A stretch of DNA of 64,000 bases from Alphaproteobacteria bacterium (GCA_052143835.1 JBKQRV010000093.1:3135-67134); one strand, 5' to 3'; numbered from the stretch's first letter, positions 1,807-61,916 are shown. The notes: generated from the letters alone by a model not told the origin. Made by a program: numbers and translations.

Positions 1807-2703
1807 ATGTCCGCCATGCTCAATCCTCCCGCGGAAATGCCCTGCCGTATCTGCGGCTCTTCCGCAGGGTTCATCGGCAGCAAGGCGGGAAAATTCGTGA
1901 GGAGCGACTTCAACCTCTACCGCTGCGCCGATTGCGGGCTCGCCTTCGTCGGCAATCCGATCACGGATCACAAGGCGGTCTATTCGGAAGATTTCTATAA
2001 GGGTCGCGGTGCCGACCCGATGGTCGATTACGAATTCGAGCTGTACCACCCGCAGGAGACGGTGCGCATCTACGAATGGCGCGGCATTCTGCGGGTCGTC
2101 ACGGCCTTGAGGGGCGAGACAAAGGGGTGCCGCTGGCTCGATTTCGGCTGCGGCAATGGCGGCCTGGTACGCCACCTCCGCGAAAAGGGTGCGGCCGACG
2201 CTGTCGGGTTCGACGAAGGATGGATTGCGGATCGGGCGCGCGCGCTCGGCATCCCGATACTGCGGTCAGAGGAGCTCGCCTCCCATCGAGGCGCCTTCGA
2301 CGTGGTGACCGCGATGGAGGTGTTCGAGCACTTGCCGGATCCGGTGTCGAGCCTCAGGGACATCCGAGCGCTGATGAGACCGGGGGGCCTGCTGTTCTAT
2401 ACGACGGGCAATGCGCGTCCGCACCGGAACGCGCTCATCGCCTGGCCCTACGTCTTGCCGGAAGTCCACGTCAGCTTCTACGAGCCGAGGACCTTGCATC
2501 GCCTGCTGAGCCGAACGGGCTTTCGTACCGAGCACCGCGGATTCGTCCCCGGCTTCGAGGACATCATACGCTTCAAGGTGCTGAAGAACCTGCGCCTGCG
2601 CACGACCGCGACGTGGGAGAAGGCGATGCCTTGGCCGCTCGTTTCCCGGATCGTGGACGCCAAGTACGGGGTCACCGCGCATCCGGTCGCCTGGGCAGCG
2701 TGA
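1807..2703 (+). CDS. Class I SAM-dependent methyltransferase with N-terminal CxxC..CxxC zinc ribbon
   Basis: CRICGSS..CADCGL zinc ribbon; motif I LDFGCGNGG; FDVVTAMEVFEHLPDP; LMRPGGLL. The ATG at 1807 is in frame with the TTG-initiated track ORF 1687..2703. Confidence 0.75.
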   Translation: MSAMLNPPAEMPCRICGSSAGFIGSKAGKFVRSDFNLYRCADCGLAFVGNPITDHKAVYSEDFYKGRGADPMVDYEFELYHPQETVRIYEWRGILRVVTALRGETKGCRWLDFGCGNGGLVRHLREKGAADAVGFDEGWIADRARALGIPILRSEELASHRGAFDVVTAMEVFEHLPDPVSSLRDIRALMRPGGLLFYTTGNARPHRNALIAWPYVLPEVHVSFYEPRTLHRLLSRTGFRTEHRGFVPGFEDIIRFKVLKNLRLRTTATWEKAMPWPLVSRIVDAKYGVTAHPVAWAA

Positions 2704-2720
2704 ACGCCCGACGGCGAGGC

Positions 2721-3476
2721 TCATCGGCCCTGCGCGCGCGAGGCCTCTTTATGGCCGACCAGGATATGCACCTGGACCGGGGTGAGCGCTGACGGCACCG
2801 TGATGCCGTAGAGCACGACTTTGCGGCCCCTCGGCATGTGTTCGACCTCGACCTTCGGCAGGAATTCGGCGACCATGTCGCGCAGATCCTCGACGACATA
2901 CTGGAGCGTCGGCGGGTGCGACGAGATGAGCGGGATGATCCGTACCGCGCTTCGGTAGGCCAGCCGCTCCAGGCGATAGAACCAACGCGGCACGCACGAC
3001 TCCACGAGGATGAAGCGGCCGCCCGGCTTCAGCACGCGGCTCGCCTCTTGAATGGCGCGACGCGCGTTGGCCTTGCAGTCCGCGACGCTGCTGCCGACCA
3101 GATGGTGGATCAGCATCACGATGAGCACGCCGTCGAAAGACGCGTCCGGCTCGGGGATGTCGAGCGCGCTGCCCGTCCTGGCCTGGGCATTGGGCGGCAG
3201 GGTGTTCTTGCAAATCTCCGGCGGCAGCTGGTCGAAGAAGAGATCCAACGCCATGATCTCGCCGACGCGCGTCGCGTCGTAATTGCACACACCTCCGTTT
3301 CCGATGTCGAGCATCCGGCCTATCCCGGCGATCTTCTCGCTTACGTATTTGCGCAACTGGACGTAAGTATCGATGGTCTCGAGGCTCTTCCTGTATTCCG
3401 CGAGGTGGTCCAGGAAGAACTGCCTATTGGTCGCCTGAGCGTCCGCCTGGACGGGGTCGGCAAGGTGGACACTCAC
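2721..3476 (-). CDS. Class I SAM-dependent methyltransferase
   Basis: Motif I MLDIGNGG; VLIVMLIHHL; RVLKPGGRFILVE. Likely GTG start preceded by a GGAGAGG Shine-Dalgarno; the track start is TTG at 3533. There is no internal ATG before motif I. Confidence 0.65.
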   Translation of the reverse strand: MSVHLADPVQADAQATNRQFFLDHLAEYRKSLETIDTYVQLRKYVSEKIAGIGRMLDIGNGGVCNYDATRVGEIMALDLFFDQLPPEICKNTLPPNAQARTGSALDIPEPDASFDGVLIVMLIHHLVGSSVADCKANARRAIQEASRVLKPGGRFILVESCVPRWFYRLERLAYRSAVRIIPLISSHPPTLQYVVEDLRDMVAEFLPKVEVEHMPRGRKVVLYGITVPSALTPVQVHILVGHKEASRAQGR

Positions 3477-3641
3477 GAAGGGCCTCTCCAAGCAATCGCG
3501 GAAACGAGGTGTGCCGCGCCAGAGTTGCGGCAAGCCATCGCAAAGACTTGTTGCAATGGCTTGTTCAAGTCAAGTCAAGACTTACTTCGCTCGAGCTCTC
3601 GCCTGTCCCCGACGGCGCTCGGCCGCGGCGGCGCTTCGAGC

Positions 3642-4664
3642 CTAGGGTCCGTGCGAGCGCGGCGTCTCGCCGGTGCCGGGTCCGGAGCCGGGGCCGCGCC
3701 GGTCGCGCACGCCGACGTTGACGGCGCGCGCGACGACGAACTGCGGGCGCCTGCGCACCTCGTCATAGATGCGCCCGATGTATTCCCCGAGCACGCCGAC
3801 CGCCATGAGCTGCACCCCGCCCATGAAGAGCACGAGGATGATGATCGTCGGCACGCCCATCGGGTAATCCATGCCGAATGCCACCTTGGCGGCGAGGACG
3901 AAGACGATCATCGCTAGGCTGAACAGGAGCACTCCGAAGCCGGTCCACAGCATGAAGGAGAGCGGATATGTCGAGAAACCGAACACGCCGTTGAAGCCGA
4001 TCCTGAGCGAGCCGAGATAGCGGTTGTATTTGCTGATGCCGGCCTCCCGGGCCTCGCGCTCGTATTCGAGGAAGGTCTGGCGGAAGCCGACCAGCGCAAC
4101 GAGGCCTCTGAGAAAGCCGTGGCCCTCGCTGAGCTCGCGCAGCTCCTCGATCACGCGCCGATTTAGGATGCGGAAATCGCCCGTGTTGCGCGGTATCGAG
4201 ACATCGGAGATGCGGTCGATCAGGCGGTAGCCGAATTCGGCGACGAAGCGCTTCATCGCCGTCTCGCCCTTGCGGCTCGCGCGCCGCGCGGTCACCACGT
4301 CGAAGCCTTCCGCGAGCTTGGCGTGCATCTTCTCGATCAGCTCGGGCGGATCCTGGAGGTCGACGTCGATCACCACGCAGCTCTCGCCCCGGCAGTTCAG
4401 GATTCCGGCCATCGTCGCGGCTGGCTGACCGAAGCGCCGGCTGAAGAGGAGAAGCCCGATCCGCGGATCGCGCGCCGCCTCCTCGGCGATGATCGCCTCG
4501 GTGCGGTCGGGACCGGGATCGAGGCAGAAGATGATCTCATAAGACCCGATGCGCTCGAGCACCGGACGCAGGCGGGCGAGAAAGGGGCGGATATTGTCTT
4601 CTTCCCGATAGACCGGAACGACGACCGAAATCCTGGGGATCGCTTCCTCGTCCATGCCCATCAT
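3642..4664 (-). CDS. GT2 polyprenyl-phosphate sugar synthase-like glycosyltransferase (DPM1/ArnC/GtrB-like) with C-terminal TM helices
   Basis: ISVVVPVYREEDNI, DPGPDRT, VIDVDLQDPPE, then two hydrophobic C-terminal helices. Start taken at MMGMDEE; the track ORF extends to 4784. Confidence 0.75.
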   Translation of the reverse strand: MMGMDEEAIPRISVVVPVYREEDNIRPFLARLRPVLERIGSYEIIFCLDPGPDRTEAIIAEEAARDPRIGLLLFSRRFGQPAATMAGILNCRGESCVVIDVDLQDPPELIEKMHAKLAEGFDVVTARRASRKGETAMKRFVAEFGYRLIDRISDVSIPRNTGDFRILNRRVIEELRELSEGHGFLRGLVALVGFRQTFLEYEREAREAGISKYNRYLGSLRIGFNGVFGFSTYPLSFMLWTGFGVLLFSLAMIVFVLAAKVAFGMDYPMGVPTIIILVLFMGGVQLMAVGVLGEYIGRIYDEVRRRPQFVVARAVNVGVRDRRGPGSGPGTGETPRSHGP

Positions 4665-4933
4665 CGCTTTTGGGACAACCTTGATGTCGAACAGCGGAAT
4701 GACGAATGGAATGTTAGCACATCGGGTTTCGCGCGACGGTCGCGGCAATGAGCGCGGCTCTTTACACACAATCCGCAGGGGCAAGTCAAGCGATCAGCCC
4801 GAAGCGCATGCGCGGCCGCCAAGAAGACGGGCAGGCCAAGGACTCCGGGCTGGACTTTCATGGGCGAGGACTCTAAGCATTCGGCACCGGATGCCCCGCG
4901 CATCGTGGTCCGAGGGCCGCTTGGTATGCCGAG

Positions 4934-5845
4934 ATGACGAAGTTCGCCTTTGACTTTCCGAGGCCTCGAGAGGCCGCGGCGGCGCCGGTGTGGCAGGGCG
5001 ATGCGTTTTGCGTCGGAGACGAGAAGCGGCGCATCGTCGCCTACGACGTCGGCGCCTCGGGGTGGACCGACGAGCTCACGCATCTCCATGAGGAGAAGGA
5101 CGCGGAGACGCATTTCATCAGCGTGGCGTCCCGCAACTGCGCGCTCGGCGCGATCAGGCGGCTCAACACCGCCAAGAGGCCGGTCATTCTCGAGATCGGC
5201 TGCGCGTCGGGCTATTTCCTGCGCGATCTCGTGGCCGCGTTTCCGGACGCCGATATCATCGGCGCCGATTATACGCTCGCGACGCTCGAGGCGGTCGCGG
5301 ATCGCGTTCGCGGCATCCCGCTTCTTCGCTTCGACCTCACGCAATGCCCGCTCCCCGACGCGTCGGTGGACGTCGTTGTCACGCTCAATGTGCTGGAGCA
5401 CATCGAGAGGGACGACTTGGCACTCCAGCACATCTATCGCATCCTGAAGCCGGGCGGCCTGATGATCGCCGAAGTGCCCGCCGACCCGGGGCTTTACGAC
5501 AGCTACGACAAGCTCCTCATGCATTATCGCCGCTACGACATGAAAGAGCTCGAGCGCCTGACGCTCGCCGCGGGCTTCGCCACGCTCGAGAAGTCGCATC
5601 TCGGCTTTTTGCTCTATCCGGCGTTCTGGCTGACGAAGAAGCTTTCCCGCTTGTCCCGGCGTACGCCGGGGCCGGGGAGCGATGCGGACGTCCGCGCGAG
5701 GGTCGAGCGCTCGATCGCGACGACGCGCCGGTGGAACCGTCTCGTCTACCGCCTCATGGATTTCGAGGGCTGGCTGCGCCACCGCGTCTATTTGCCGGTC
5801 GGGATTCGCTGCCTCATCAACTGCCGCAAGCCGGTGCTTAAGTGA
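4934..5845 (+). CDS. Class I SAM-dependent methyltransferase
   Basis: Motif I ILEIGCASGY; VDVVVTLNVLEHIERD; ILKPGGLMIAE. ATG start. Confidence 0.7.
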   Translation: MTKFAFDFPRPREAAAAPVWQGDAFCVGDEKRRIVAYDVGASGWTDELTHLHEEKDAETHFISVASRNCALGAIRRLNTAKRPVILEIGCASGYFLRDLVAAFPDADIIGADYTLATLEAVADRVRGIPLLRFDLTQCPLPDASVDVVVTLNVLEHIERDDLALQHIYRILKPGGLMIAEVPADPGLYDSYDKLLMHYRRYDMKELERLTLAAGFATLEKSHLGFLLYPAFWLTKKLSRLSRRTPGPGSDADVRARVERSIATTRRWNRLVYRLMDFEGWLRHRVYLPVGIRCLINCRKPVLK

Positions 5846-6072
5846 GAGCGGCGGTTTCGCGGCATTCGCAGCACCGTCGGGCCTGAGAGGGACGCGCGGC
5901 AATTGGGACCGGCCGAGCTCGTCGCGGCGAGGCGAGATGGGACGCGAAGGGCGCGGCATTGTAACTTGACCCGCGGGCCTCGGCGAGTTAACAGCCAGAC
6001 GGCGCTTGGTGGCGGACGCGCGCGCGAGTGCGCGCCGGACGCCGCGGAAGCAGCAAGGGAAATCGAACGACG

Positions 6073-7056
6073 ATGTCGAGTGCCGCCCCTCGCTCCGCCC
6101 ACGTGAAGAGATGGCTCGCGCTTTTCGGCAAGGGGGCGGTCTCCGCCTTCCTGCTCTGGCTCATGCTCCGGCATCTCGATTGGGCCGACGTCATCGCGCG
6201 CCTCCATAGTATTTCTCCGTTCTCGCTCCTCGGCGCGCTCCTGCTCACCTATGTCGGCACGTCGCTCTCGGCGGCGAGGTGGTGGCTCATTCTATCGGCG
6301 GTCAATTATCGGCTGCCGATCACCGATTTGCTGCGCTACGTCTTCGTGGGTTTCTTCTTCAACCAAGCATTGCCCTCGACCGTCGGGGGCGATGCCATGC
6401 GCATTGTCCTCGGCACGCGCGCCGGCCTGCCGGTGGACGTGGCCTTCCGCTCGGTGTTCGCGGAGCGGCTGATCGGCCTCTTCGTGCTGTTGCTGTTGAG
6501 CCTCGCCGGCCTGCCCAAGATCATGCGGTACTTCGACATGGACTATCATGCCTGGCTGTTGGCCGGCGTGGTCGTGGGCGGGCTCGTCGGCATGATCGCC
6601 GGCTGGTTTCTCATCAACGTCAGCGGCTGGCTCAGGCGTTTTCGCCTCGGCCGTCTCGTGCACAACGTCGCGCGCGACGTCCTGGCCGTCCTCATGCATC
6701 GCCACTATTTCATCCTGATCGCGGTGATCTCGCTCATCGGCCAAGTGTTGGGGTGCCTCGCGATCTGGGCCATCGCCCGCGGCCTGGGGACCGGCCTCGA
6801 CCCGATTCATACGCTGCTCGTGGTGCCCATCGTCCTCGTGCTCCTCATGGTGCCCATCTCCATCGCGGGCTGGGGGCTGCGCGAGTCGATGCTGCTCGTA
6901 GGCCTCGGCATCGTCGGCGTGAGCCCAGGGGATGCGGTTTTGACCTCGCTGCTTTATGGCCTCGTCAATCTGTTCGGAAGCCTCATCGGCGGGGTGTTGT
7001 GGCTGTTGGGCGGCAGCCGCCGCGGCGCGCTTAAGACGGAGGCGAAGCCCCTTTAA
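6073..7056 (+). CDS. Flippase-like integral membrane protein (LPG-synthase-TM / UPF0104-type domain)
   Basis: About 8 predicted TM segments; conserved-looking FFFNQALPSTVGGDAMR loop. These proteins typically accompany GT2 polyprenyl-P-sugar synthases. The ATG at 6073 is in frame with the track ORF start at 6028. Confidence 0.55.
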   Translation: MSSAAPRSAHVKRWLALFGKGAVSAFLLWLMLRHLDWADVIARLHSISPFSLLGALLLTYVGTSLSAARWWLILSAVNYRLPITDLLRYVFVGFFFNQALPSTVGGDAMRIVLGTRAGLPVDVAFRSVFAERLIGLFVLLLLSLAGLPKIMRYFDMDYHAWLLAGVVVGGLVGMIAGWFLINVSGWLRRFRLGRLVHNVARDVLAVLMHRHYFILIAVISLIGQVLGCLAIWAIARGLGTGLDPIHTLLVVPIVLVLLMVPISIAGWGLRESMLLVGLGIVGVSPGDAVLTSLLYGLVNLFGSLIGGVLWLLGGSRRGALKTEAKPL

Positions 7057-7345: not shown

Positions 7346-8683
7346 GTGAAGAGTTGGCTTAAGGACCGTGCGCGCGGTTTGGTCGGCTATTACGACCTTC
7401 GCCAAGCTTTGGCGCGCATCGAGGACACCCTGAGTGTGGTCCTTTGGCGACAGGCGGATATTCTGGAAACGGACCGCGTTAACCTCTCTCGTTTGGAAGT
7501 CGCTGACTCGGCAAAATCCCGAATGAAAGGATCAAACTATTCATTCGCCAAGCGAGAGGTCTTGCGCCGACGCGCAATGGAATCGCAGCGGAGCGTACTC
7601 AGCCGGCTCGTCTGCGCGGCCTGTCTCGGCAACTTGGAACGACCGAGCGAAGGCGCCGAGCTGGCTTGCGCCAAATGCGGCGGGCGCTACGAGATTCGCG
7701 ACGATGTCCCGATCATGTTGGTCATGGACCCCAATTGGGCCAAGAAACGGGATGAGATCGTCGGCGAAGTCGCCTACAACGCGCGCACGGCACCTCCACA
7801 CGTGCATGAGCAGCGCAACAGCTTCATGAACGAGAGCAGCCGCTCTCTGCTGAAATCGCTGAACATCGAGCTATCCCAGGACGACGTCCTCATCGTCGGC
7901 TGCTCCATGGCGGAAGCGGAATGCTTTGAGCCCCTCGCGCGCTCGTCGGTAGCGCTCGACATCGTCCCCGAGCTCACGTTGGCCTACCAGAAACACAGCG
8001 CAGGGGAAGGGCGGAACGTCGCGTGGATCTGCGGGGACGGCGAATGCTTGCCTTTCGCTGCCGGGACGTTCGATACCGTGATCGTGCGCCAGGCGCTGCA
8101 CCACATGCTGAAGTATTATTCCGCTATCAGCGAGTTCTTCCGCGTTTGCCGCGTCGGCGGACGCGTCATCATCATCGAGGAGCCATACAGCAAACCGGAC
8201 CTGGCCGACGCGGCTCTGCTCGAATTGCCCGATGATTTTCCGCTCTACGGAACAATCCGCCTCGGAGATCTGCGTCGGCGGCTCGGCGTGCCAAGCGTGG
8301 CGTCCACCGGCACCAGCGGCCGCGAGCTGATCGACTTCAGCCGATTGGAGGCGATAAAAGCGTATATTCCCGCGATCGCTGGCGATAACGAAAGCCTGCT
8401 CGCCGACAAGTACCACGCCTTCGCGACGATCAATTTGATTCTCTCGCTTCGCCTTCACACCGACGAGTTCGATCTGCTTTGGCCGGACAGGGTCGGTTGG
8501 GTGGACCACTCGGGTGAGGAGATCGCCTTCTGCACCGGCGCCAATCCGGCCGTGACTCAGCCCTTGATCGAGCGCCTGGCCGCCGCGAGCACGCTTTCGG
8601 TCATTGCCCGCAAATCACGCAAGACGACCGTTCTGCGCATCCGCGACGACCTCAAAGCCTCGCCAATGCAAGCGGTGTCGTGA
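7346..8683 (+). CDS. Trm112-like zinc-ribbon domain fused to a class I SAM methyltransferase
   Basis: CAACLG..CAKCGGRYEIRDDVPIML (Trm112-like); LPFAAGTFDTVIVRQALHHM; VGGRVIIIEEP. GTG start with a GGGAG Shine-Dalgarno 8 nt upstream. Confidence 0.6.
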   Translation: MKSWLKDRARGLVGYYDLRQALARIEDTLSVVLWRQADILETDRVNLSRLEVADSAKSRMKGSNYSFAKREVLRRRAMESQRSVLSRLVCAACLGNLERPSEGAELACAKCGGRYEIRDDVPIMLVMDPNWAKKRDEIVGEVAYNARTAPPHVHEQRNSFMNESSRSLLKSLNIELSQDDVLIVGCSMAEAECFEPLARSSVALDIVPELTLAYQKHSAGEGRNVAWICGDGECLPFAAGTFDTVIVRQALHHMLKYYSAISEFFRVCRVGGRVIIIEEPYSKPDLADAALLELPDDFPLYGTIRLGDLRRRLGVPSVASTGTSGRELIDFSRLEAIKAYIPAIAGDNESLLADKYHAFATINLILSLRLHTDEFDLLWPDRVGWVDHSGEEIAFCTGANPAVTQPLIERLAAASTLSVIARKSRKTTVLRIRDDLKASPMQAVS

Positions 8684-8816: not shown

Positions 8817-9686
8817 TCAGTCGCGTCCGATGATGAGGCCTCGCATGCGGCGCGCGAAGATCTTGGTCAGGCTCCAAGCGACCGAGACCCAGTTGCGCCA
8901 TTGCAGCGCCTTCGAGCGGCCGGCCTTGCGCTCGTAAGAGACCGCATCGACCTCCACGAAGGAGGCGCCCTGATCCAGGACGCGTGTGAGCAATTCGGCC
9001 TGGAAGCCGAAGCCGGTGCCCTCGGTGTGATAGCGCAGCACGTAGGAGCGCCGATAGCAGTTGCCGCCGTTGTAATAGCGCGGCTTGTGACCGCTCAAGA
9101 GACGCACCAACGTCGCGAAGGCGCGCGAGAGGAGGATGCGGGCGCGGCTCTTCCCCAAGATCGTTCGATGGCAGGGCACGATGACGTCCGCCTTGTCGAG
9201 CGCGCGGAAGATATTGACGAAGGTCTCCACCGGCTCGACGTCGTCGCCCCAGGCGATACGATGGTAGCGCCCCTTGGCCAAGAAGGCGCTGTCGTAGCAA
9301 TTGCGCGCGATGCCGCGGCGGCGCTCGTGCCGCACCAAGGTGATATCCGTCTCCGGGTGCTCGCGCATGTAACGCTCGACCACGTCTGCGGTCCGATCGG
9401 TCGATGCGTCGTCGAAGACGTGCGCCTCGTAGGTGATGCCGGTCTGCCGCGCCGCCTCGGCGATCGTATCGAGGGTGCCGCAGACCCCGTCCTCCTCGTT
9501 GAGCACGGGGATGTAGAGCGTGATGTCGACCGTGCCGCTGAAGAGTTCATCGTAGAAATCCAGAAGCCCAGGCCGGCGGCCCGGAAATCCGTGGATCACG
9601 CGTGACCTTGCGGCGAGCGCCGGCCTCTCTACGTCCTCGCTGCCCATTCTCTTGCCCATTCGGCACTCGTCGCCGGACCAAGCCAT
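8817..9686 (-). CDS. GT2 family glycosyltransferase (soluble type)
   Basis: DITLYIPVLNEED, HVFDDASTDRT, and a DxD-like region. ATG at 9686; alternative ATGs at 9659 and 9647. Confidence 0.7.
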   Translation of the reverse strand: MAWSGDECRMGKRMGSEDVERPALAARSRVIHGFPGRRPGLLDFYDELFSGTVDITLYIPVLNEEDGVCGTLDTIAEAARQTGITYEAHVFDDASTDRTADVVERYMREHPETDITLVRHERRRGIARNCYDSAFLAKGRYHRIAWGDDVEPVETFVNIFRALDKADVIVPCHRTILGKSRARILLSRAFATLVRLLSGHKPRYYNGGNCYRRSYVLRYHTEGTGFGFQAELLTRVLDQGASFVEVDAVSYERKAGRSKALQWRNWVSVAWSLTKIFARRMRGLIIGRD

Positions 9687-9963: not shown

Positions 9964-10944
9964 TTGGAATCGAACCGGCCGCTCAGCAGGGACCGTGCGC
10001 TCAAGGCCTACCGGGACATGCTGCGCATCCGCATGGTCGAAGAGGCGATTGCGGAGCATTACAGCGAGCAGGAGATGCGTTGTCCTGTCCATTTGTCGGT
10101 CGGACAGGAGGCGGCCGCCGTCGGAGTGTGCCTGGCGCTCACCGACGCCGACCGCGCCTACAGCACGCACCGCTGCCATTCGCATTATCTGGCCAAGGGC
10201 GGACCGCTCAAGCCGATGTTGGCGGAGATCTACGGCAAGGTGGACGGCTGCCTCGGCGGGCGCGGCGGGTCGATGCATCTCACCTCGCCCGAGCATGGCA
10301 TGATGCTGAGCGTGCCGATCGTGGGAAGCTCGATTCCCTTGGCGGTCGGCTCAGCACTCGCGGATACGATCGACGGGCGCGATAGCGTGAGCGTCGCCTT
10401 CTTCGGCGATGCGGCCGTCGAGGAGGGCATCTGGCACGAGAGCGCGAATTTCGCGAGCCTGCGCAAGCTGCCGGTGCTCTTCGTCTGCGAGAACAATCTC
10501 TACTCCGTCTACACCCCGCTCGCCGAGCGCCAGCCGAACCGGCCGCTCACGCAGCTCGCCGAATCGCATGGCATGGCGACGGCGCACGCCGACGGCAACG
10601 ACTTGGACGCGGTCGCGCGCGCCTCGAGCGAAGCGGTCGCGCGCGCCCGGCGCGGCGACGGCCCCAGCTTTCTCCTGCTCGACACCTATCGTTGGCGCGA
10701 GCACTGCGGACCGAATTACGACAATAATATCGGCTACCGCACGCCCGAGGAGTTCGAGTCGTGGCGCGCGCTCGACCCGATCCCGCGCTACCGGCGCGCG
10801 CTCGAAAGCTCCGGCGCGCTCAGCGCCCAGGCGGCAGAGCGCATGGCATCCGAGATCGCTGCGGAGATCGCGGAGGCCTTCGCCTTTGCCAAGGCCTCGC
10901 CCTTGCCCGATGCCAGCGCCGCGGCGAGCACGATATATGCCTGA
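9964..10944 (+). CDS. TPP-dependent dehydrogenase E1 component alpha subunit (PDH/acetoin dehydrogenase E1alpha-like)
   Basis: TPP motif FFGDAAVEEG..x27..CENNLYS; YRDMLRIRMVEE N-terminus. TTG start 11 nt after AGAGGAGAA. No ATG or GTG lies between the upstream stop at 9865 and 9964. Confidence 0.8.
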   Translation: MESNRPLSRDRALKAYRDMLRIRMVEEAIAEHYSEQEMRCPVHLSVGQEAAAVGVCLALTDADRAYSTHRCHSHYLAKGGPLKPMLAEIYGKVDGCLGGRGGSMHLTSPEHGMMLSVPIVGSSIPLAVGSALADTIDGRDSVSVAFFGDAAVEEGIWHESANFASLRKLPVLFVCENNLYSVYTPLAERQPNRPLTQLAESHGMATAHADGNDLDAVARASSEAVARARRGDGPSFLLLDTYRWREHCGPNYDNNIGYRTPEEFESWRALDPIPRYRRALESSGALSAQAAERMASEIAAEIAEAFAFAKASPLPDASAAASTIYA

Positions 10945-53723: not shown

Positions 53724-53756
53724 TGAAGACCCTGGAACTTTTTTTGAGAACAACAT

Positions 53757-53918
53757 TCCAAAATGAACCTGATTGCGTCGGGAGTCAGTATGTTCCAACG
53801 CCGCACCGAAGCGAACGACGGCGAATGCAGAATCTCCAAAAGGAAGACCTTGTCCGTCAGCCCTGACGAAGCGAATTTCAGGATAACATCTCTCCAAAGC
53901 GATTGCGTCGTCAATCCC
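53757..53918 (-). pseudogene. Possible remnant of a second methyltransferase (motif II/III fragment only)
   Basis: In the same frame upstream of 53723: IRFVRADGQGLPFGDSAFAVVRFGAALEH, with no motif I and low-complexity sequence before it. Confidence 0.25.
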
Positions 53919-54509
53919 GCCGCGGCATCCGAGGCTTGTTCGGGTACCAGGCTTCGAGATGACCGGAGCTATCGCAAGCAAGATCGGTCTGAATATCCGC
54001 TCCGAGCCTCGGGCCGCAGCCGGTCCCGGTCGCACCGTTGGCGCGCGAGCTGGTGCGCAATTCCGGGGGCCTCGCCCTTCTCGTGGTCCGGCGGGCGCTG
54101 TGGTGGGCGCAAAGCCGCACGCTCGCGGTATCTCTGCTCGGTTTTGCTGCTGATGCTTGCCACCTGCTTGGTGTCGGCCAGCTAAAGCATGCGCTTCGAG
54201 CAGGTCATGCTTCCACTCATGCCGATGACGAGGGCGCTCGCCTTGGAGAGACTCGTTCTTGCCGTTCGGGGCCGTCTGAAGCGTCGGCATCCTGGACCGG
54301 CCGGGTCTACCGGAGGCGAGGTGCGGCACTCCGGCCAAGCCAGTGCTTCTTTGCGCGCGGGCCCCGTGGTAACGTGCGCGCGCGAGATGCCGCCGGAGTT
54401 GCGAGGCGGAAGCTGGCGAGGGCCGCGACGGTAGCGCTCCCGTGGTGTGGCCGATGGCGATGCCGGGCGGTGAGGACGTTCATTCGGGCCACCTTTGGAG
54501 AGGACGGGA

Positions 54510-55875: not shown

Positions 55876-56352
55876 TCAGATGTCGTTCCCGTGCTTGAAG
55901 AGGCGACGCAGGCGCTCGTAGACGGCCACGATTCGCCCCCCCGCCGCGGTCAGCGCCAGGCCCTCCGGGCCGGCGCTGAGAAAGCCGGCCTGGATCAAGC
56001 GGCTTATCCGCGCCTCGGTCATGTTGCGTCCGCTGTAGAGCCGTGCCACCTCATCGGGACCGAGCGGCTGCCGCGACAGCCTCGACAACAGGTTGGCCGA
56101 CACGCTGCTGAGCGTGAACGTGAACAGAAATATGTAGAGATTGCAGAGGAACGCATAGGCGAGCACGCCGGTGATCAGCTCTGCCGACAAAGGGCCGTAG
56201 CGAGCGATCAGCCATAAGATCAATAGCAATCCGACGGTGCTGCCGACCGCGAGAAAGCGGAGCACGCTGTTAGCGATGAGCCCCAACCGTCCGGCCAAGG
56301 CGTGCAGGCCGAGCGAGACCAGGAAGAAAAGGAACCCCGAGATCAACGACAT
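55876..56352 (-). CDS. Small membrane-anchored protein with C-terminal winged-helix-like domain, paralog 1
   Basis: About 3 TM, then MTEARISRLIQAGFLSAGPEGLALTAAGGRIVAVYERLRRLF. Start taken at MSLISGF. Confidence 0.45.
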   Translation of the reverse strand: MSLISGFLFFLVSLGLHALAGRLGLIANSVLRFLAVGSTVGLLLILWLIARYGPLSAELITGVLAYAFLCNLYIFLFTFTLSSVSANLLSRLSRQPLGPDEVARLYSGRNMTEARISRLIQAGFLSAGPEGLALTAAGGRIVAVYERLRRLFKHGNDI

Positions 56353-56477
56353 ACGGAGTGAGGGCGGCCGTGCCTGGAATGGCGTGGGGCGGAGACGGCC
56401 ACGTGGTTCTCCCTGAGGTGCCCGACCGAGTCTCGTCCCGCTGGCGGGCCGCATTGGCGAGACTGCCGCGGCGCTGT

Positions 56478-56984
56478 CTAGCCCGTATCCGCGTAATTGG
56501 CAAGCCAACGAAGCATGCGGATCGCACCCCCGACAAGCTCGCCTCTGCCGGTCAGGCGGTAGCGCCCATCATCGAGGCAAAGAAGACCCAAGGCGCTCAG
56601 CGACCGCAGCCGTTCCGTCTTCTTGGCCTCGCCGGTTCGGGCGAATTCGTCCACGAGCGTGTCAGGGGTCGCGCTGCCGCGGCGCCTGACTTCGGCAAGG
56701 ATGGCAATCGAGTAGCTGATCTGCGACAGGGACCAAAGCTCCAGGAACGTGATGCTGTAAAGGCCGTGCAGCATGACGAGGCCCAGACCCGCGACGAGCA
56801 GCCGGTAACTCCCGGCGAGCACGCCGGGCAGCAGGACGGCCGCCGAATAGAGGCAGCTCGATATCGCATGATAGGCGAAGATAGTTGCTTCCCGTCTGAA
56901 GCCGGCAAGGTGCCGCAACAAGGCGAGATACAGCGCCAGATGAAGCACGAGATAAGCGACCGCGACGAGATAAAGCTCAACCAT
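56478..56984 (-). CDS. Small membrane-anchored protein with C-terminal winged-helix-like domain, paralog 2
   Basis: MVELYLVAVAYLVL.. (3 TM), then a soluble C-terminus ..RLRSLSALGLLCLDDGRYRLTGRGELV. The SD AGGAGAG lies 7 nt upstream of the ATG at 56984. Confidence 0.45.
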   Translation of the reverse strand: MVELYLVAVAYLVLHLALYLALLRHLAGFRREATIFAYHAISSCLYSAAVLLPGVLAGSYRLLVAGLGLVMLHGLYSITFLELWSLSQISYSIAILAEVRRRGSATPDTLVDEFARTGEAKKTERLRSLSALGLLCLDDGRYRLTGRGELVGGAIRMLRWLANYADTG

Positions 56985-57555
56985 GGGAGGTATCTCTCCT
57001 TCGGCCGCCCGCGTGATCGGCTCGCCCGCGGCGCGTCGGCGCAGCGACAGATGGCGTCCTGGTCGACCGCTCTCCCGACGCGGCTCGGCCGACCCGATCG
57101 ACCTTCGCGACGCCGCGCGCATCCTCGGCCCGGCATAGAGTTACCCCATTCATTTGGACGCGGCAATCCCATCGATGGCCAGCAGGTCCTGTGACCGGCC
57201 CGCGCCTTGTTGAAAGACGCGCCCGAACCGTGCCGACTTAAGGCTTGTGCAGCTAGGGAAAGTAATCTATAGCACCTCGCCGTGCGATCGGGGCCGGTCA
57301 TTGCTCTTCAGGGTCATGAGTTTTGGCACCCTCCGGGCGTGCCACGTGCGGCATCTACGGCGATGGCGATGCCGGGCTTCCCAGGGCTTGCCGTGAAATG
57401 CTCGAGCGGACAATCTCCCCACCCCACGAACGCCCCGTGCTCGCAGCAATCCAATGGCCGCAGCGGGCCCTTTCGGGCCTGATCATCTGCGGCGGGCTTG
57501 AGGCCGCGCCTGGGCGAGCTACGAAGCGGGCAGCGCATCGAGCCCCGGAAGCCAC

Positions 57556-58566
57556 ATGAGTGATCTTGGAAGCCGCCGCGAGAGGGACGTTCGGCCGCCG
57601 GGCGGCCTAGCGACGGCCGGTCGTGGACGCACGCGGACGCCCACCCCCGCATCGGACACGCCAAGATGCAGCGTCTGCGGCTGCAGCGAGCGCGTGCCCG
57701 TGTTCCATGCCCGCGATTACGAGCACGGCGTGCCTGGCGAATGGCTGGTCGTTCGCTGTCCCCGATGCAATCTCATGTTCCTCTCGCCGATGCCGGCGGA
57801 CGAGGAGCTGGCTTCATTTTACCCTTCGAATTACTCGGCCTATCAAAGCGGTTCGCCGTTGGCCTGGTTGTTTCGTAGCGTCTATCGACTCGACGCGCGG
57901 CGCATTCGGCGGCTCATCGGCGAGCGCGGCCGCATTCTCGACGTCGGCTGCGGCAACGGCGATGCGCTTCTCCAGATCGGGCCGTACGGAAAGTGGGACC
58001 TCTGCGGCGTCGAGCTGAACGGTGCGGCGGTCGAGAAGGCCAGGAGTGCCGGTGTTTCGGTCCAGCAAGGTGACCTCGCCAGCTGCAATTTTCCGGATGC
58101 GAGCATGCGGCTCATCCGCATGGGGCACGTCATCGAGCACGTGCCCCGGCCGGCCGACACCTTGCGGCGTGCCTATGCGTTGCTGGAGCCGGGGGGCGTG
58201 CTCTATGGCGAGACGCCGAGCACGGATTGCCTCGATTTTCGTTTGTTCGGCAAATACTGGGGGGCTCTCCACGTCCCGCGCCACCTTTTTTTCTTCGACG
58301 GGCGCAATCTGAGGCGCGCGTTGGAGCAGGCCGGCTTCGTCGACGTGTCGATCGCGCCGCGGCTGAGGACGGTCGGTTGGTCGTGCGGCGTGCAAAATTA
58401 CCTGGCCGACCGCGCCGGCCTGCGCATACCGGAAGCGGGCCGCGTGCGCTGGTATCTACTTCTCATCATTTGTTTTCTTCCGCTCACGCTCCTGCAGTCG
58501 CTATCCGGCAAGACGGCGACCGTCGCGTTCACGGCGCGCAAACCCGGCGGCGTGGGCCGTCGATGA
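57556..58566 (+). CDS. Zinc-ribbon + class I SAM methyltransferase
   Basis: CSVCGCSE..CPRCNLMF; ILDVGCGNGD; IRMGHVIEHVPRP; LEPGGVLY. Confidence 0.7.
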   Translation: MSDLGSRRERDVRPPGGLATAGRGRTRTPTPASDTPRCSVCGCSERVPVFHARDYEHGVPGEWLVVRCPRCNLMFLSPMPADEELASFYPSNYSAYQSGSPLAWLFRSVYRLDARRIRRLIGERGRILDVGCGNGDALLQIGPYGKWDLCGVELNGAAVEKARSAGVSVQQGDLASCNFPDASMRLIRMGHVIEHVPRPADTLRRAYALLEPGGVLYGETPSTDCLDFRLFGKYWGALHVPRHLFFFDGRNLRRALEQAGFVDVSIAPRLRTVGWSCGVQNYLADRAGLRIPEAGRVRWYLLLIICFLPLTLLQSLSGKTATVAFTARKPGGVGRR

Positions 58567-60857
58567 TGCTCGACTCCAGACGGCTCATGCTGGCCGTCGC
58601 GTTTGCCTGGGCGGCGCTCCACCTCGCCTTCCTCGGACAATTCATCTATCACGACAGCTGGAAGCACAACTTTCCCATGCTCTACGACCTCGCGCAGCAG
58701 AGCAGCTGCCGCGGCCTACCGTCTTGGCTCTGGACTCCCGATAGCGGCACGCCGACGCTTATCTACGTCATCAGCACGAGCTTGACGCAGATTCTGCGCG
58801 CGCCGGCGCTTTATCTTCTGGGCTGCGTGCATCCCGGTCTCGTCGCCAGCGTTTATTACCACAAGGCGGTTACCTATCTCGGCTACTTCGGCTTGGCGCT
58901 CGGCATGTACGTGCTCGGCAGGCTGCTGCTCCAGCACCGCATGTCGGCGGTCTATCTGTTCGCCGCGACCCTCTTCGCCGGGCTTTGTCTCCAGGCGGCT
59001 CATTCCGACCAGGTCGTCACCATCACTTTCTGGTTTCCTTGGACGGCTGCCTGCGGCGTGCTCTACCACCGCCATTACGACTCCTTGAGCGGAAGTCGCT
59101 ATCTCAATCTCGCCGTTCTTTTCGTCTGCCTGCAGTCGTTCGACCAATATCCCCACTTCCAGGTCATTGCCGTCGGAGCCGCGGCCGCGATTTACGCGCT
59201 CTTCGAGCGGCGGCGCGCGCTCGCGGCCCTTCGCATGCACTGGCGGCGGCTTTGGCCTTCGGCGCTCGTGCTCGGCTTGACGATCTCGCATTTCCTGATC
59301 TTACGCGGCGCCGTGAGCGGCTACGCGCCGTCCCTGCGCACCGCCCTCGTCGTCGACCCCACCCTTTTCAGCGAAAGCGGTTTCGTGCAGCCAACAGCCT
59401 TGATCGGCAGCATCCTGCCGACCAGTCTGCTTGCCGGTTTCGAGGCGCTTAAAAGCGACATGGAAAACTTCTTTGAGTATTTGCGGGTGGCCCCGCATAC
59501 GGCTTGGTCAATCTTCCGCCTCGACGAGCTCGCCTTCTATGTCGGCGTCGTGCCACTCGTGCTTGCTGCCGTCTTCCTGTTGCGCCCGGGCATGGCGAGA
59601 TTGAGGCTCGGCTGGGTCATTTGGATCACCGTGATCTTTGCCGTGTCGCTGGAGCAGACGCGACTGTATCTCTTCTTGTTCCACTACGTCCCCTTCTTCG
59701 ATCTGTTCCGCTCGTACTTCCTGTTCATTCTGTTCGTGATGCTGGGCGTCCTCGTGATCAGCGCTTACGGCTTCGACGCGGTCCTGACCCTGCCCGACGT
59801 TGCGCGCCGCGCGGTGCTGCGGCGCGCCGGCCTCGCCCTTTTCATCATGGTTCTCGGGGCGGTCATCGCGCTCCTGTCGATGGCTGCTTTCGATCCGAAT
59901 CCCTTGCATCTGTTATTGACCCTCAAGGGGCCGCTTCTCAGGGACCTTCTCATCACTGCAGCCGCATACCCGGCGCTCCTTTACGCGGCATGGCCGAACG
60001 TTCTGCCTGAGCGCCGGGGCCTTGCCTTGATCGCGGTCATGGTGCTTTCGCAGGTGATTTACACGGCGGGCACCTATTCTCAGGTCGCGATCGCGCAGCC
60101 GCGGCTTTTCGCCGAATTCGGGCTCGAGCGCTCCGAGTTGGAGCCCTTCGATGCCGCGATCCGCGGCGACCCCAATGCGGTCCAAAGAAAGCTCTGCGCG
60201 CAATTCGCCGAGTGTTACCTCTCGCGCCGGCCGTCGGTGTCGCTCCGTCGCGACCTCGAGGGCACGTTCTTGCGGTCGCGGCGCGGGGCCGTGTTCGTTC
60301 GGCACCTCAGCCTGCCCGTCGCCGAGGCCCTGCTGGGGTTGACGATGCCGGTATTCTGGACCAGCCGTCACCTCGAGGAAATCGATTCGGATGACTCCCT
60401 CGTTGAGCGCCTAAATGCCCACGATACGGACATCGCGCTCTTTCTTCGCGAGGTCGCCTATGTCAAGAAGCGCGCCTTCGAAAAGCTCGCGGCCGGCCAG
60501 GATGCGGGCGGGGAATGGGCGGATCACGTCGAGCTGCGCAAGCTGGAGTGGGGCCGGGATGTCGTCCGGCTTTCATACAATGCCGATAAGCCGGTGCTCT
60601 TGAATGCCTCGATCACCTGCACGTCCGAGTGGACGGCCAGCGTTGACGGCAAGGAGATTCCGCTCGTTTGCGCCAACGTCGATGGACTCTTGCTGCGGCT
60701 GCCGCCAGGTGCAGGGACCGTCACGCTCCACTATCGAGACCGCTGGAGCGATTTCGTATTCGACACGCGGTATGTGCTTTTGGCAATCGCCCTCTTCGGC
60801 ATCATACGGTTGGCGGGAGCGGCTCTGCGGCGGCGTTCGGCCGCTTTGCGCCCCTGA
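58563..60857 (+). CDS. YfhO-like large membrane protein (putative GT-C-type glycosyltransferase), paralog 2
   Basis: Colinear with 25795..28209 (HSDQ(V/T)V.I.FW.PW, RKLC..FA.CYLS.R, terminal TM YVLLAIALFGIIRL). The ATG overlaps the upstream stop (ATGA). Confidence 0.5.
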   Translation: MMLDSRRLMLAVAFAWAALHLAFLGQFIYHDSWKHNFPMLYDLAQQSSCRGLPSWLWTPDSGTPTLIYVISTSLTQILRAPALYLLGCVHPGLVASVYYHKAVTYLGYFGLALGMYVLGRLLLQHRMSAVYLFAATLFAGLCLQAAHSDQVVTITFWFPWTAACGVLYHRHYDSLSGSRYLNLAVLFVCLQSFDQYPHFQVIAVGAAAAIYALFERRRALAALRMHWRRLWPSALVLGLTISHFLILRGAVSGYAPSLRTALVVDPTLFSESGFVQPTALIGSILPTSLLAGFEALKSDMENFFEYLRVAPHTAWSIFRLDELAFYVGVVPLVLAAVFLLRPGMARLRLGWVIWITVIFAVSLEQTRLYLFLFHYVPFFDLFRSYFLFILFVMLGVLVISAYGFDAVLTLPDVARRAVLRRAGLALFIMVLGAVIALLSMAAFDPNPLHLLLTLKGPLLRDLLITAAAYPALLYAAWPNVLPERRGLALIAVMVLSQVIYTAGTYSQVAIAQPRLFAEFGLERSELEPFDAAIRGDPNAVQRKLCAQFAECYLSRRPSVSLRRDLEGTFLRSRRGAVFVRHLSLPVAEALLGLTMPVFWTSRHLEEIDSDDSLVERLNAHDTDIALFLREVAYVKKRAFEKLAAGQDAGGEWADHVELRKLEWGRDVVRLSYNADKPVLLNASITCTSEWTASVDGKEIPLVCANVDGLLLRLPPGAGTVTLHYRDRWSDFVFDTRYVLLAIALFGIIRLAGAALRRRSAALRP

Positions 60858-61034
60858 GTCTGGTTCCAGCGGCACCCCTGCCCGCCTTAATCGCCAAGGG
60901 GCAGGCGCCGGCACGGCAAACGGTTTTGCAAATTTTGCGGTTTGCGTTGACATCGATTGGCCAAAGACAGAAAACTCTAGGGCTTCCTCTGAGGCTTCTT
61001 GCGCGGTAATCGGGGGAACGCTCGAAGGTCGGAC

Positions 61035-61916
61035 ATGGAAACACGGGCAAACGTGGTGGCACAGGCCGGTTACGGGTCTCCGCACAACGTGCACGCCGAG
61101 GTTTTAGCCTGCCCGCGCTGTCATGCCGGCTCGCTGCGCATGGCAGGAGACAAGTTCCGCTGCCCCCAGTGCGGCTTCGAGGGCGGCTACAGGAACGACG
61201 TCTATCTTGTCATGGACGACAGGAGCAAATCCTATTTCGACGAACTGCATGGGACGATGACCGCGCAGAACGCTAAGGAAGGCGTCAACGAGGTGTTCTA
61301 CGCCAAGCAGTTCGCCTACATCGAGGAAATCCTTCAACCGGGAATGACGATCGTCGATATCGGATGCGGCCCTTCCGTCGGCTACCGGCGTCCGCCGGGG
61401 AGCCTCCTGATCGGGGTCGATCCCTCCTACGAATCGATCGCCGTGAACCGTAGCGTCGATCTTCGTATTTTCGGCGGCGCCCAAGCCCTGCCGATCGCCA
61501 CCGCTTCGGTCGACGTCGTCGTCTGTTTTTATTCGATCCATCACATGATCGGCTCGTCGATCTCGGAAACCCGCGACAACGTCTCCGCCGCCTTTAGGGA
61601 GTTCAAGCGCATCGTCAAACCCGGCGGCAAGATCGTGATCTTCGAAGTGAACCCGTATTGGTTGTTCTGGGCCGCCGAGCAGCTATTTTGGGGCTTGACG
61701 CGCCGCTTGTTCGGCAAGGCCATCGATTTTTACTTCTGGTCGCGGCACGGATTGAAACAGCTCGGACGCCAATATCTTGGAAGCGCGGAGCTGGAAACCG
61801 AGCACTATCGCGCCCCGTGGCGGACGACCTTTCCGCCGGCATTCTCCATCCAGTGGCTTCGCATGCCGTTTCTCCTCTATCCCTTCCATGTCGCGCGCTA
61901 CAGCTGGACCCTTTGA
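61035..61916 (+). CDS. Trm112-like zinc-ribbon + class I SAM methyltransferase
   Basis: CPRCHAGS..CPQCGFEGGYRNDVYLVM; IVDIGCGPS; VDVVVCFYSIHHM; VKPGGKIVIFE. Start taken at METRANV; track TTG at 60999. Confidence 0.65.
   Translation: METRANVVAQAGYGSPHNVHAEVLACPRCHAGSLRMAGDKFRCPQCGFEGGYRNDVYLVMDDRSKSYFDELHGTMTAQNAKEGVNEVFYAKQFAYIEEILQPGMTIVDIGCGPSVGYRRPPGSLLIGVDPSYESIAVNRSVDLRIFGGAQALPIATASVDVVVCFYSIHHMIGSSISETRDNVSAAFREFKRIVKPGGKIVIFEVNPYWLFWAAEQLFWGLTRRLFGKAIDFYFWSRHGLKQLGRQYLGSAELETEHYRAPWRTTFPPAFSIQWLRMPFLLYPFHVARYSWTL

Follow-up and report, generated by a model that had tools for sequence, protein, structure and literature searches.

A methyltransferase-rich locus for a putative methylated envelope glycan in a Stellaceae-related alphaproteobacterium, with TcaB9-like and Trm112-like zinc domains

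The sugar methyltransferases TcaB9, KijD1, TylC3 and MtmC (PDB 3ndi, 5t64 and 4rv9) combine an N-terminal Cys4 zinc domain with a class I S-adenosylmethionine (SAM) domain, and proteins of the Trm112/UPF0434 (YcaR) family commonly occur as free subunits of 6-15 kDa. Zinc domains of both kinds occur in a 64,000-nucleotide stretch of DNA from Alphaproteobacteria bacterium (GCA_052143835.1, JBKQRV010000093.1:3135-67134; this whole stretch is called the window), which holds 11 class I SAM methyltransferase genes among glycosyltransferases and large membrane proteins and whose methyltransferases probably decorate an envelope glycoconjugate. Genes are named below by a coordinate from Table 1. Three of the window proteins (1807, 42876 and 57556) have the TcaB9 order of domains; they are merely 16-21% identical to the solved enzymes TcaB9, KijD1 and MtmC, and they end in an ARKP strand instead of the Methyltransf_14 domain of the TcaB9 family. 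Two others (7346 and 61035) share with Trm112/UPF0434 the motif L(A/V)CPxCxxxL ... LxCxxCxxxYx(I/V)xxG(I/V)P, but differ in that the knuckle is fused in cis, that the methyltransferase partners belong to two rare, unnamed families, and that the context would be envelope-glycan biosynthesis instead of translation. Zinc-binding cysteines have been lost in some eukaryotic Trm112 proteins, and this is mirrored by the loss of zinc-ligand cysteines in some relatives of 61035.

A 2017 review called the function of bacterial Trm112 proteins unknown and noted Trm112-methyltransferase fusions in some bacteria and in an archaeal subfamily, some of the archaeal fusions being putative Trm9 orthologues (PMC5372719). 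More recently, a mycobacterial UPF0434 protein was predicted to activate the envelope methyltransferase MtrP (bioRxiv 10.64898/2026.07.15.738315). Like the window fusions, the ML1347/Rv1684 (UPF0434)-MtrP pair links a bacterial Trm112-like protein to a class I methyltransferase of envelope biogenesis; there the two are separate proteins, connected by a predicted complex and a phenotypic correlation, whereas in the window they form one polypeptide in a putative glycan locus. At the level of the whole locus, the nearest parallels are the systems GtrB/GtrA/GtrC, CsbB/GtcA/YfhO, ArnC/ArnT and PgfS/PgfM (PMC11127046). Their three-component design, a family 2 glycosyltransferase (GT2), a flippase and a membrane glycosyltransferase of the GT-C type, is a precedent for the pathway considered here, together with the pentofuranose three-component systems and the decaprenyl-phosphate (dec-P)-linked methylthio-xylose donor described in the same source. 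The window likewise has GT2 domains resembling polyprenyl-phosphate-sugar synthases, a flippase-like protein and polytopic proteins, one family of which looks GT-C-like and one weakly YfhO-like. It differs in having at least 13 large membrane proteins in 64 kb where those systems have one GT-C each, in methyltransferases joined to the donor synthases in one protein or encoded next to them, and in giving no Pfam match to GtrA. Enzymes of the WbdD (Escherichia coli O8/O9a) and WsaE (Geobacillus S-layer glycan) type, which cap the non-reducing end of a polymer, also place a methyltransferase within a glycan-assembly protein and yield methylated sugars in surface polymers; the window differs from them in lacking an ABC exporter, a kinase domain and a coiled-coil ruler among its Pfam matches, and its fused GT2s are of the lipid-monophosphate-sugar synthase type.

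The window has a G+C content of 59-68%, which fills raw lists of open reading frames (ORFs) with shadow ORFs. Genes were therefore called by third-position GC bias (GC3), and about 43 GC3-supported candidates were scanned against Pfam. At the DNA level the window is 93.8% identical over 5.8 kb to a metagenome-assembled genome (MAG) of the Stellaceae (Rhodospirillales), and its right-hand part matches genes called on the ENA contig L008, whose protein for the last gene (62118-) is identical across all 612 residues that lie inside the window.

Eleven of these genes encode a class I SAM methyltransferase domain above the Pfam gathering thresholds (Methyltransf_11, 12, 23, 25 or 31). An earlier reading of the sequence alone (the sequence-only reading) had counted at least 11 such domains in 64 kb, and this held, with all eight ORFs that it named and three further genes above threshold. 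Under an assumed frequency of 1-3% of genes for class I methyltransferases, 11 or more among 43 genes would have a probability of 4e-13 to 4e-8; the density is unusual and the kinds of enzyme are familiar. CxxC motifs were also in excess, with 13 observed within the methyltransferases against 0.79 expected from cysteine content (P ~4e-12), and an N-terminal CxxC pair was present in 6 of the 11 methyltransferases and in none of the window's other proteins. The five zinc-ribbon or Trm112-like copies proposed earlier are all real, and 43965 (Methyltransf_13, E 4e-17) raises their number to six. The spacing proposed for three of them, CxxC-x(15-20)-CxxC, was wrong: the spacers measure 23 (1807), 36 (42876) and 26 (57556) residues, and those in the Trm112-like genes 14 (7346) and 13 (61035).

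A count of this kind would be inflated if several of the ORFs were decayed pseudogenes, a suggestion to which the non-canonical motif I of 7346 (VGCSMAE), a methyltransferase-like fragment upstream of 53723 and the lower GC3 of 42876, 43965 and 53043 (0.67-0.71) lend some colour. A glycine-rich motif I was nevertheless readable in 10 of the 11 proteins (GCGNG, GCATG, GCGNG, GCGPS, GNGG, GCASG, GCGVG, GCGTG, GIGEG and GSNDG). The variant in the eleventh, GCSMA of 7346, occurs in the same or closely similar form throughout its family, alongside an acidic residue after beta-2 and the motifs GDGECLPF and RQALHHM, and by this conservation appears to be a family trait and not a sign of decay. GC3 is of the coding type in all 11 (0.67-0.86), orthologues are conserved, and 61035 differs from a 96%-identical copy in the Stellaceae MAG (L001) by 20 synonymous and 12 non-synonymous codons, which reads as a pattern of purifying selection. 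Judged by uninterrupted ORFs and full-length Pfam matches, all 11 appear intact; pseudogenisation was rejected on motif I, family conservation and GC3, and we consider it hardly credible.

The only piece that looks degenerate, 53724-54338 on the minus strand, is not counted among the 11. It lies in frame upstream of the 226-residue methyltransferase 53043-53723, and the long ORF 53043-54338 resolves into that gene, which is called with the same 226 residues on the identical contig L008, preceded by a possible methyltransferase remnant. The upstream segment is rich in Arg, Pro and Ala, mostly of low complexity and without a Pfam match, and it holds about 50 residues resembling methyltransferase motifs post-I to III, including EIRFVRADGQGLPFGDSAFAVVRFGAALEH. 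Its best matches in a small local database were the small methyltransferases L010_12016 and L012_7127 (E ~1e-4), and it is possibly the remnant of a small methyltransferase like those that stand beside Trm112-methyltransferases in a Chloroflexi MAG (L010) and a metagenome contig (L012).

The zinc domains are of two types. In 43965, Pfam recognised each of the three domains that make up the TylC3/TcaB9 family (zinc, SAM and C-terminal), and the gene encodes, by this domain content, a complete member of the TylC3/TcaB9-type nucleoside-diphosphate (NDP)-hexose C-methyltransferases. In a MAFFT alignment both CxxC motifs of 1807, 42876 and 57556 fell in register with those of 43965, with a His and a C-terminal ARKP strand in common. 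The three shorter proteins have no Pfam Methyltransf_13 match and no C-terminal Methyltransf_14 domain, and because the latter is absent we class them, from their alignments, as relatives of the C-methyltransferase family and not as members. In a PDB sequence search with 57556, TcaB9 and KijD1 were among the best matches; residues 29-293 were paired with residues 6-273 of the KijD1 chain, a span that covers the zinc domain. Three of the four cysteines of 57556 (C38, C68 and C71) do not vary across 21 homologues, and the fourth, C41, is kept in 90% or more; in relatives of 1807, both CxxC motifs are conserved over identities ranging from 94% to 24%. When an AlphaFold2 model of the 57556 family (predicted local distance difference test, pLDDT, 84.1; predicted template-modelling score, pTM, 0.83) was searched with Foldseek, KijD1, MtmC and TcaB9 ranked first (E ~1e-14, template-modelling score, TM, 0.54-0.56, about 320 columns). 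His243, invariant in this family, falls opposite His225 of TcaB9, the residue next to position 224 in the E224Q entry 4e2y, and a His aligned to TcaB9 His225 is found in 1807, 42876 and 57556. The first type of zinc domain would contribute structurally to the region of the active site, as it does in TcaB9. Just before the ARKP strand, the 57556 family conserves a hydrophobic helix (WYxLLIxPFLPxTxLQ) that might serve as a membrane anchor.

The public NCBI annotation of a protein identical to 57556 (P0001, 288 residues) starts at Val49, and the first CxxC is lost from it; in homologue alignments the longer form with all four cysteines is the conserved one. A 501-residue homologue (P0043) is fused to a HAD phosphatase annotated as D-glycero-D-manno-heptose 1,7-bisphosphate phosphatase, and in L012 SIS and HldE-like heptose-pathway genes stand beside the run of methyltransferases. 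A link to a heptose-type sugar is possible from this fusion and these neighbours.

The second type of zinc domain is found in 7346 and 61035. By eye, both fit the Trm112 motif (7346, LVCAACLGNL...LACAKCGGRYEIRDDVPIML; 61035, VLACPRCHAGSL...FRCPQCGF..YRNDVYLVM). With single sequences, Pfam Trm112p scored 7346 below its cut-off (16.7 against 22 bits) and gave no match for 61035. These scores being insufficient, we built profiles from the N-terminal domains of the two families and searched them against PDB structures. The 7346 profile first matched the UPF0434/YcaR-type structures 2js4 (E 3.4e-11), 2kpi (1.9e-10), 2pk7 and 2hf1, and also the archaeal Trm112 of 6zxw, yeast Trm112 (~4e-4) and human TRMT112; the 61035 profile matched 2kpi (E 2.5e-10), 2pk7 (1e-5) and 2js4 (2.5e-4). 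By these profiles 7346 and 61035 each carry a Trm112/UPF0434 (PF03966) zinc knuckle fused to the N-terminus of a methyltransferase, which bears out the Trm112-like assignment of the sequence-only reading. The four zinc-ligand cysteines are complete in both proteins, and two to four of them are lost in some relatives of 61035. DIGCGP is invariant in the 61035 family, and 7346 has a conserved C-terminal extension of about 150 residues beyond the methyltransferase domain. From the fusion, and from the literature in which free Trm112 acts in trans, it seems likeliest that the knuckle stabilises or activates its own methyltransferase domain in cis. It had also been suggested that the zinc ribbon mediates docking to membrane partners; this idea found no support, since in the families from which both zinc domains come the domain either belongs to the methyltransferase itself or activates it.

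All characterised Trm112 partners in the review modify components of translation, and some archaeal fusions are putative Trm9 orthologues (PMC5372719), so that the two fused enzymes might act on tRNA, rRNA or release factors and lie in a glycan locus by chance. Bacteria, however, have no homologues of the Trm112 translation partners (PMC5372719), and neither Pfam, NCBIfam nor PDB searches gave a match to the Trm9, Trm11, Mtq2 or Bud23 families. In three other lineages, moreover, 61035 orthologues again lie inside runs of genes for methyltransferases, GT2, GtrA, E1, transaldolase-like and giant membrane proteins. On these glycan-type neighbourhoods a role in translation was set aside, and we hold it to be very unlikely.

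The methyltransferases are not a family that has recently multiplied in place. It could be supposed that one zinc-ribbon methyltransferase was duplicated repeatedly in this lineage, since the three shorter proteins of the first zinc type share one domain layout and can be aligned over their full length, the alignment of the two Trm112 fusions spans both domains, and true duplications of membrane proteins do occur in the locus (19414/28369, 59% identical; 21313/30012, 57%). In all-against-all BLAST, however, the window methyltransferases are 23-35% identical to one another, and much closer orthologues, at 60-80% identity, exist in other genomes. Homologues of 57556 number more than 1,262, many of them 55-79% identical (soil metagenomes; Steroidobacteraceae and Binataceae MAGs); those of 61035 number about 60, close relatives being 62-80% identical and those from Chloroflexi MAGs 41-48%; and the 7346 family is rare, since of 1.84 billion proteins 16 representatives pass E<1e-30 and the closest of them is 61% identical. 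Any duplications among the methyltransferases must therefore long predate this genome, and by these identities the 11 are old, distinct, long-diverged lineages gathered in one locus. The local expansion claimed in the sequence-only reading is contradicted by the 23-35% identity of the paralogues, on which a duplication burst was rejected; we regard it as highly improbable.

The surroundings of the methyltransferases point to sugars. The window has five GT2 domains, four of which resemble polyprenyl-phosphate-sugar synthases, and two of these are fused to a methyltransferase. The GT2 half of 38844 has the Dol-P-Man synthase 5mlz as its best PDB match (7.5e-17), followed by ArnC and GtrB, and that of 46198 again 5mlz (E 4.7e-22), followed by ArnC. 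The L008 gene identical to 51645 has the domain PF26629 (GT2_TM_C). NCBIfam scores of the GT2s for PgfS, ArnC, AglJ and PpgS were all below the equivalog cut-offs. Genes for the two subunits of a thiamine-pyrophosphate (TPP)-dependent E1 enzyme, two DegT aminotransferases, a PIG-L deacetylase and an MBOAT protein follow one another on one strand, and two Acyl_transf_3 proteins were found in the window with Pfam. The recurrence of E1 alpha/beta and transaldolase-like genes elsewhere hints at branched or higher-carbon amino sugars. Because the TylC3/TcaB9-type C-methyltransferase adjoins an NDP-sugar 4,6-dehydratase-like gene, at least one methylated deoxy-sugar is a reasonable prediction. To this extent, and in placing the set in an alphaproteobacterial glycan locus, the earlier proposal of a heavily O-methylated glycan, with methylated deoxy-sugars such as those of some alphaproteobacterial lipopolysaccharides (LPS), is partly supported; for its alternative, methylation used for regulation, no evidence was found.

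The occurrence of methyltransferase and glycosyltransferase in one polypeptide also recalls WbdD and WsaE, and some of the methyltransferases, especially the GT2 fusions, could terminate chains or regulate their length on a polymer built in the cytoplasm. The left end of the window would suit such strain-variable decoration: in close relatives the order [membrane protein][1807 methyltransferase][2721 methyltransferase][GT2][4934 methyltransferase][flippase-like] is kept, and an otherwise syntenic metagenome contig (L017, Ga0335078_10042731, 77% identity) is without the 2721 homologue. However, no Wzm/Wzt ABC exporter, kinase or coiled-coil ruler was present among the Pfam matches of the window, and the fused GT2s resemble synthases that transfer a monosaccharide to polyprenyl phosphate (5mlz, ArnC, GtrB) and not polymerising glycosyltransferases. 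We consider chain termination quite unlikely. In another relative (L014, Ga0209415_10003946) the membrane-protein gene 35-1675 is present in two tandem copies; together, the left-end relatives suggest that methylation is strain-variable and that methyltransferase and transferase content differs among strains.

The gene neighbourhood recurs in other genomes. Around 57556 orthologues in L004, L006 and L007 there are 2-4 further methyltransferases, and L006 also carries E1 alpha/beta and two DegT genes (43-50% identity), a YfhO-like protein and a relative of 61035. Orthologues of 61035 in L010, L011 and L012 (the first a Chloroflexi MAG, the others metagenome contigs) again lie in methyltransferase runs, accompanied by transaldolase-like, E1 alpha/beta, GT2 and GtrA genes. 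E1 alpha/beta occurs with methyltransferases in L006 and L011, transaldolase-like genes occur in L006, L010 and L012, and GtrA occurs in L011. In two of these three loci the 61035 orthologue is immediately followed by genes for polytopic proteins of 800-1,750 residues, and the adjacency of methyltransferases to large polytopic membrane proteins recurs in other phyla also.

One recurrent neighbour is consistent with a different substrate. Orthologues of the FA_desaturase-family enzyme 34222 (57-62% identity) are found no more than 10 kb from the orthologue of 57556 in L004 (8980-10014, where the two genes overlap) and L007 (17902-18936), and L006 has a fragmented copy (20120-20879, 40% identical). 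This suggests a hydroxylase and an O-methyltransferase of the 57556 family that may act as a pair on one substrate, and part of the set, notably that family, might methylate a lipid or another non-sugar molecule, either at a hydroxyl made by the FA_desaturase or on an aminolipid or phospholipid head group. The conserved hydrophobic C-terminal helix of the 57556 family would fit, as would the MBOAT protein, the two Acyl_transf_3 proteins and the MprF-like flippase domain in the locus and a weak similarity to phospholipid N-methyltransferases in NCBIfam and PDB searches. The lipid-methyltransferase similarities are, however, generic Rossmann-fold matches, and the desaturase has as its closest named family an amino-acid hydroxylase (GntB, guanitoxin arginine hydroxylase; best NCBIfam match, E 1.2e-14, far under cut-off), which does not imply a lipid substrate. 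Among solved structures, the 57556 family comes closest to sugar C3-methyltransferases, zinc domain included, and the loci in question also carry the sugar genes DegT, E1 alpha/beta, GT2 and GtrA. We regard a non-sugar substrate as unlikely.

The large membrane proteins are the other conspicuous component. At least 13 polytopic proteins of 500-840 residues, which fall into five or more sequence families, belong to no family in Pfam or NCBIfam. At E<=1, Pfam gave no match for five large membrane proteins and sub-threshold matches for two others (YfhO for 58227 and an implausible viral p10 for 62118), and NCBIfam gave no equivalog-level match for ten membrane or family-less proteins. Family A has 11 homologue clusters among 5.8 billion proteins, and the credible top Foldseek matches of its AlphaFold2 model (pLDDT 79.7, pTM 0.84) were all GT-C enzymes, namely ArnT, PglB, STT3, PimE, EmbC, AftA/B, DPY19 and Pmt4 (best E 2e-3, TM 0.42). 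The gene of family C at 58584-60857 sits between the zinc-type methyltransferases 57556 and 61035. A two-gene block, one gene of family A and one of family B, is present as an old tandem duplication (19414-22938 and 28369-31673, copies 59% and 57% identical), with two other large membrane-protein genes between the copies, and two further polytopic proteins of about 1,100 residues follow just past the end of the window (L008 13840-20882).

Smaller family-less proteins were also noted. The pair 16479-17645 and 17629-19035, located after the MBOAT gene, are paralogues (51% identical) with one transmembrane helix each. On the minus strand, 55876-56508 and 56478-57122 encode adjacent small membrane proteins of about 210 residues with three predicted transmembrane helices each and no credible family; a fragment 39% identical to one of them was found in L006, and their location makes them candidate donor flippases of the GtrA-like kind. 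Two stretches, 40000-46000 and 50000-54000, have a lower G+C content (0.59-0.60, against 0.62-0.68 elsewhere), and the methyltransferases with the lowest GC3 (42876, 43965 and 53043) sit inside them; these sub-blocks may have been acquired separately. No tRNA genes were found in the window that would signal an island boundary.

Table 1. Coordinates, strand and supporting evidence for features of the window (E values from Pfam or NCBIfam as stated)
Feature	Coordinates	Strand	Evidence and remarks
Polytopic protein, no known family	35-1675	+	Directly upstream of zinc-type methyltransferase 1807; pairing kept in close relatives
Zinc-type methyltransferase, class 1	1687/1807-2703	+	Cys4 CRIC-x23-CADC; Methyltransf_23 E 1.7e-27; motif I WLDFGCGNGG
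Plain class I methyltransferase	2721-3533 (2721..3476)	-	Methyltransf_11 E 5e-13; motif I MLDIGNGG; GC3 0.85
GT2 with two C-terminal transmembrane helices, PgfS/ArnC-like	3642-4784	-	Pfam GT2 E 1.7e-24; NCBIfam PgfS E 2.2e-67 and ArnC E 2.8e-43, both below cut-off
Plain class I methyltransferase	4934-5845	+	Methyltransf_11/25/12 E 2.7e-18; motif I ILEIGCASG
MprF-type flippase-like domain	6028-7056		Pfam, NCBIfam
Trm112-like knuckle-methyltransferase	7346-8683	+	CAAC-x14-CAKC; Methyltransf_11 E 3.3e-13; Trm112p 16.7 bits (cut-off 22)
Fifth GT2	8817-9686		Weak HpsE match only
TPP-dependent E1 alpha	9964-10944	+	Pfam, NCBIfam
E1 beta	~10950-12040	+	Pfam, NCBIfam
DegT aminotransferases (two)	12089-13198, 13195-14307	+	Pfam, NCBIfam
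PIG-L deacetylase	14312-14968	+	Pfam, NCBIfam
MBOAT	15011-16462	+	Pfam, NCBIfam
Seven-protein polytopic block	19414-34059	.	7-11 predicted transmembrane helices each; no Pfam/NCBIfam family
Polytopic family A	19414-21165, 28369-30015, 31693-34059; 40598-42253 (-); 48038-49525 (+); 49647-51227 (-)		BLAST paralogy
Polytopic family B	21313-22938, 30012-31673		BLAST paralogy
Unplaced polytopic protein	23073-25592	-	
Polytopic family C, YfhO-like	25795-28209		
FA_desaturase-family membrane di-iron enzyme	34222-35259	+	Pfam E 2.3e-24
Methyltransferase-GT2 fusion	38844-40319	+	Methyltransf_31 E 1.7e-16; Glycos_transf_2 E 2.2e-27
Zinc-type methyltransferase, class 1	42699/42876-43859	+	Cys4 CPVC-x36-CDDC; Methyltransf_23 E 4.6e-33; motif I VLDIGCATG
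TylC3/TcaB9-type C-methyltransferase, complete by domain content	43965-45311	+	Methyltransf_13 E 4.1e-17; Methyltransf_23 E 4.5e-9; Methyltransf_14 E 6.8e-46
NDP-sugar 4,6-dehydratase-like	45314-46273	+	GDP_Man_Dehyd E 8.4e-62; NCBIfam gmd E 3.5e-52, below cut-off; directly downstream of C-methyltransferase 43965
GT2-methyltransferase fusion	46198-47805	+	Glycos_transf_2 E 6.1e-24; Methyltransf_11 E 1.7e-15
GT2 with C-terminal transmembrane domain, AglJ/PpgS-like	51645-52970	+	Pfam GT2 E 1.1e-17; NCBIfam AglJ E 3.5e-33
Plain class I methyltransferase, 226 residues	53043-53723	-	Methyltransf_11 E 3.9e-17 on the long ORF; motif I TLEIGIGEG
Zinc-type methyltransferase, class 1	57556-58566	+	Cys4 CSVC-x26-CPRC; Methyltransf_23 E 1.2e-27; conserved hydrophobic C-terminal helix
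Polytopic family C	58584-60857	+	40% identical to 25795-28209; Pfam YfhO E 2.4e-4, below cut-off; 756 residues in L008
Trm112-like knuckle-methyltransferase	60999/61035-61916	+	CPRC-x13-CPQC; Methyltransf_11 E 1.9e-12
Polytopic protein running off the window end	62118-63998	+	770 residues on L008; directly downstream of Trm112-methyltransferase 61035

The reading that we prefer is that the window is part of a very large locus for a cell-envelope glycoconjugate, in which the methyltransferases would have been collected to decorate unusual sugars. Because SAM is found in the cytoplasm and the methyltransferases lack signal peptides, these enzymes would act at the cytoplasmic face of the membrane, on nucleotide-sugars or on sugars linked to polyprenyl phosphate. 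The GT2-methyltransferase fusions would methylate some of the lipid-linked monosaccharide donors during their synthesis, and the methylated donors would be flipped and then used outside the cytoplasm by GT-C-like membrane proteins to give a multiply methylated surface glycan. That these are sugar methyltransferases decorating an envelope glycoconjugate of a Stellaceae-related alphaproteobacterium we hold to be probable, with a confidence somewhat better than even; the specific step on a methylated lipid-linked donor receives roughly half of that confidence.

Several results weigh against this reading. An NCBIfam scan of nine of the methyltransferases returned no equivalog-level match and so gives no substrate a name, and PDB sequence searches with 4934, 2721 and full-length 61035 gave generic methyltransferase matches, the result for the plain enzymes 4934 and 2721 counting here. 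The methylation of polyprenyl-phosphate-linked sugars is inferred from domain fusion alone. The Pfam scan of the window genes found no initiating phosphoglycosyl transferase, Wzx/Wzy or ABC exporter, which leaves the acceptor polymer unplaced. The GT-C-like fold of family A comes from a single model whose Foldseek scores are weak (E 2e-3, TM 0.42), and hhalign showed no relation of family A to families B, C and D, with thin profiles of two sequences each. The co-occurrence of the FA_desaturase leaves room for a non-sugar substrate of 57556, and the organism is known from metagenomes only, hence has no glycan chemistry. No relevant work came up in a literature search that covered the surface chemistry of Stella and the Stellaceae, TcaB9-like O-methyltransferases, and Trm112 in connection with LPS or O-antigen.

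A wider proposal goes beyond this genome, namely an undescribed envelope-glycosylation pathway distributed across phyla (Alphaproteobacteria, Chloroflexi and others), in which Trm112-fused and shortened TcaB9-like methyltransferases would methylate unusual lipid-linked sugars before flipping and several new GT-C-like families would use the donors. We advance it tentatively and think it improbable as a whole. If it is true, the fusions would act as a Rosetta stone, pointing to the activation of envelope-glycoconjugate methyltransferases as the native role of bacterial Trm112/UPF0434 proteins. On the preferred reading, the locus would offer a concrete, testable setting for bacterial Trm112-like domains, and the five or more polytopic families without a Pfam or NCBIfam model may be new families of GT-C glycosyltransferases. 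The TcaB9-like zinc methyltransferases without a nucleotide-sugar domain would likewise constitute a widespread, unnamed subfamily with more than 1,200 homologues, all of which are annotated merely as SAM-dependent methyltransferase. For the organism, the locus would mean that a little-known soil group of the Rhodospirillales bears a surface glycan with many methyl groups; methylated sugars alter surface hydrophobicity and antigenicity, and such a glycan would therefore bear on interactions with soil, phages and hosts.

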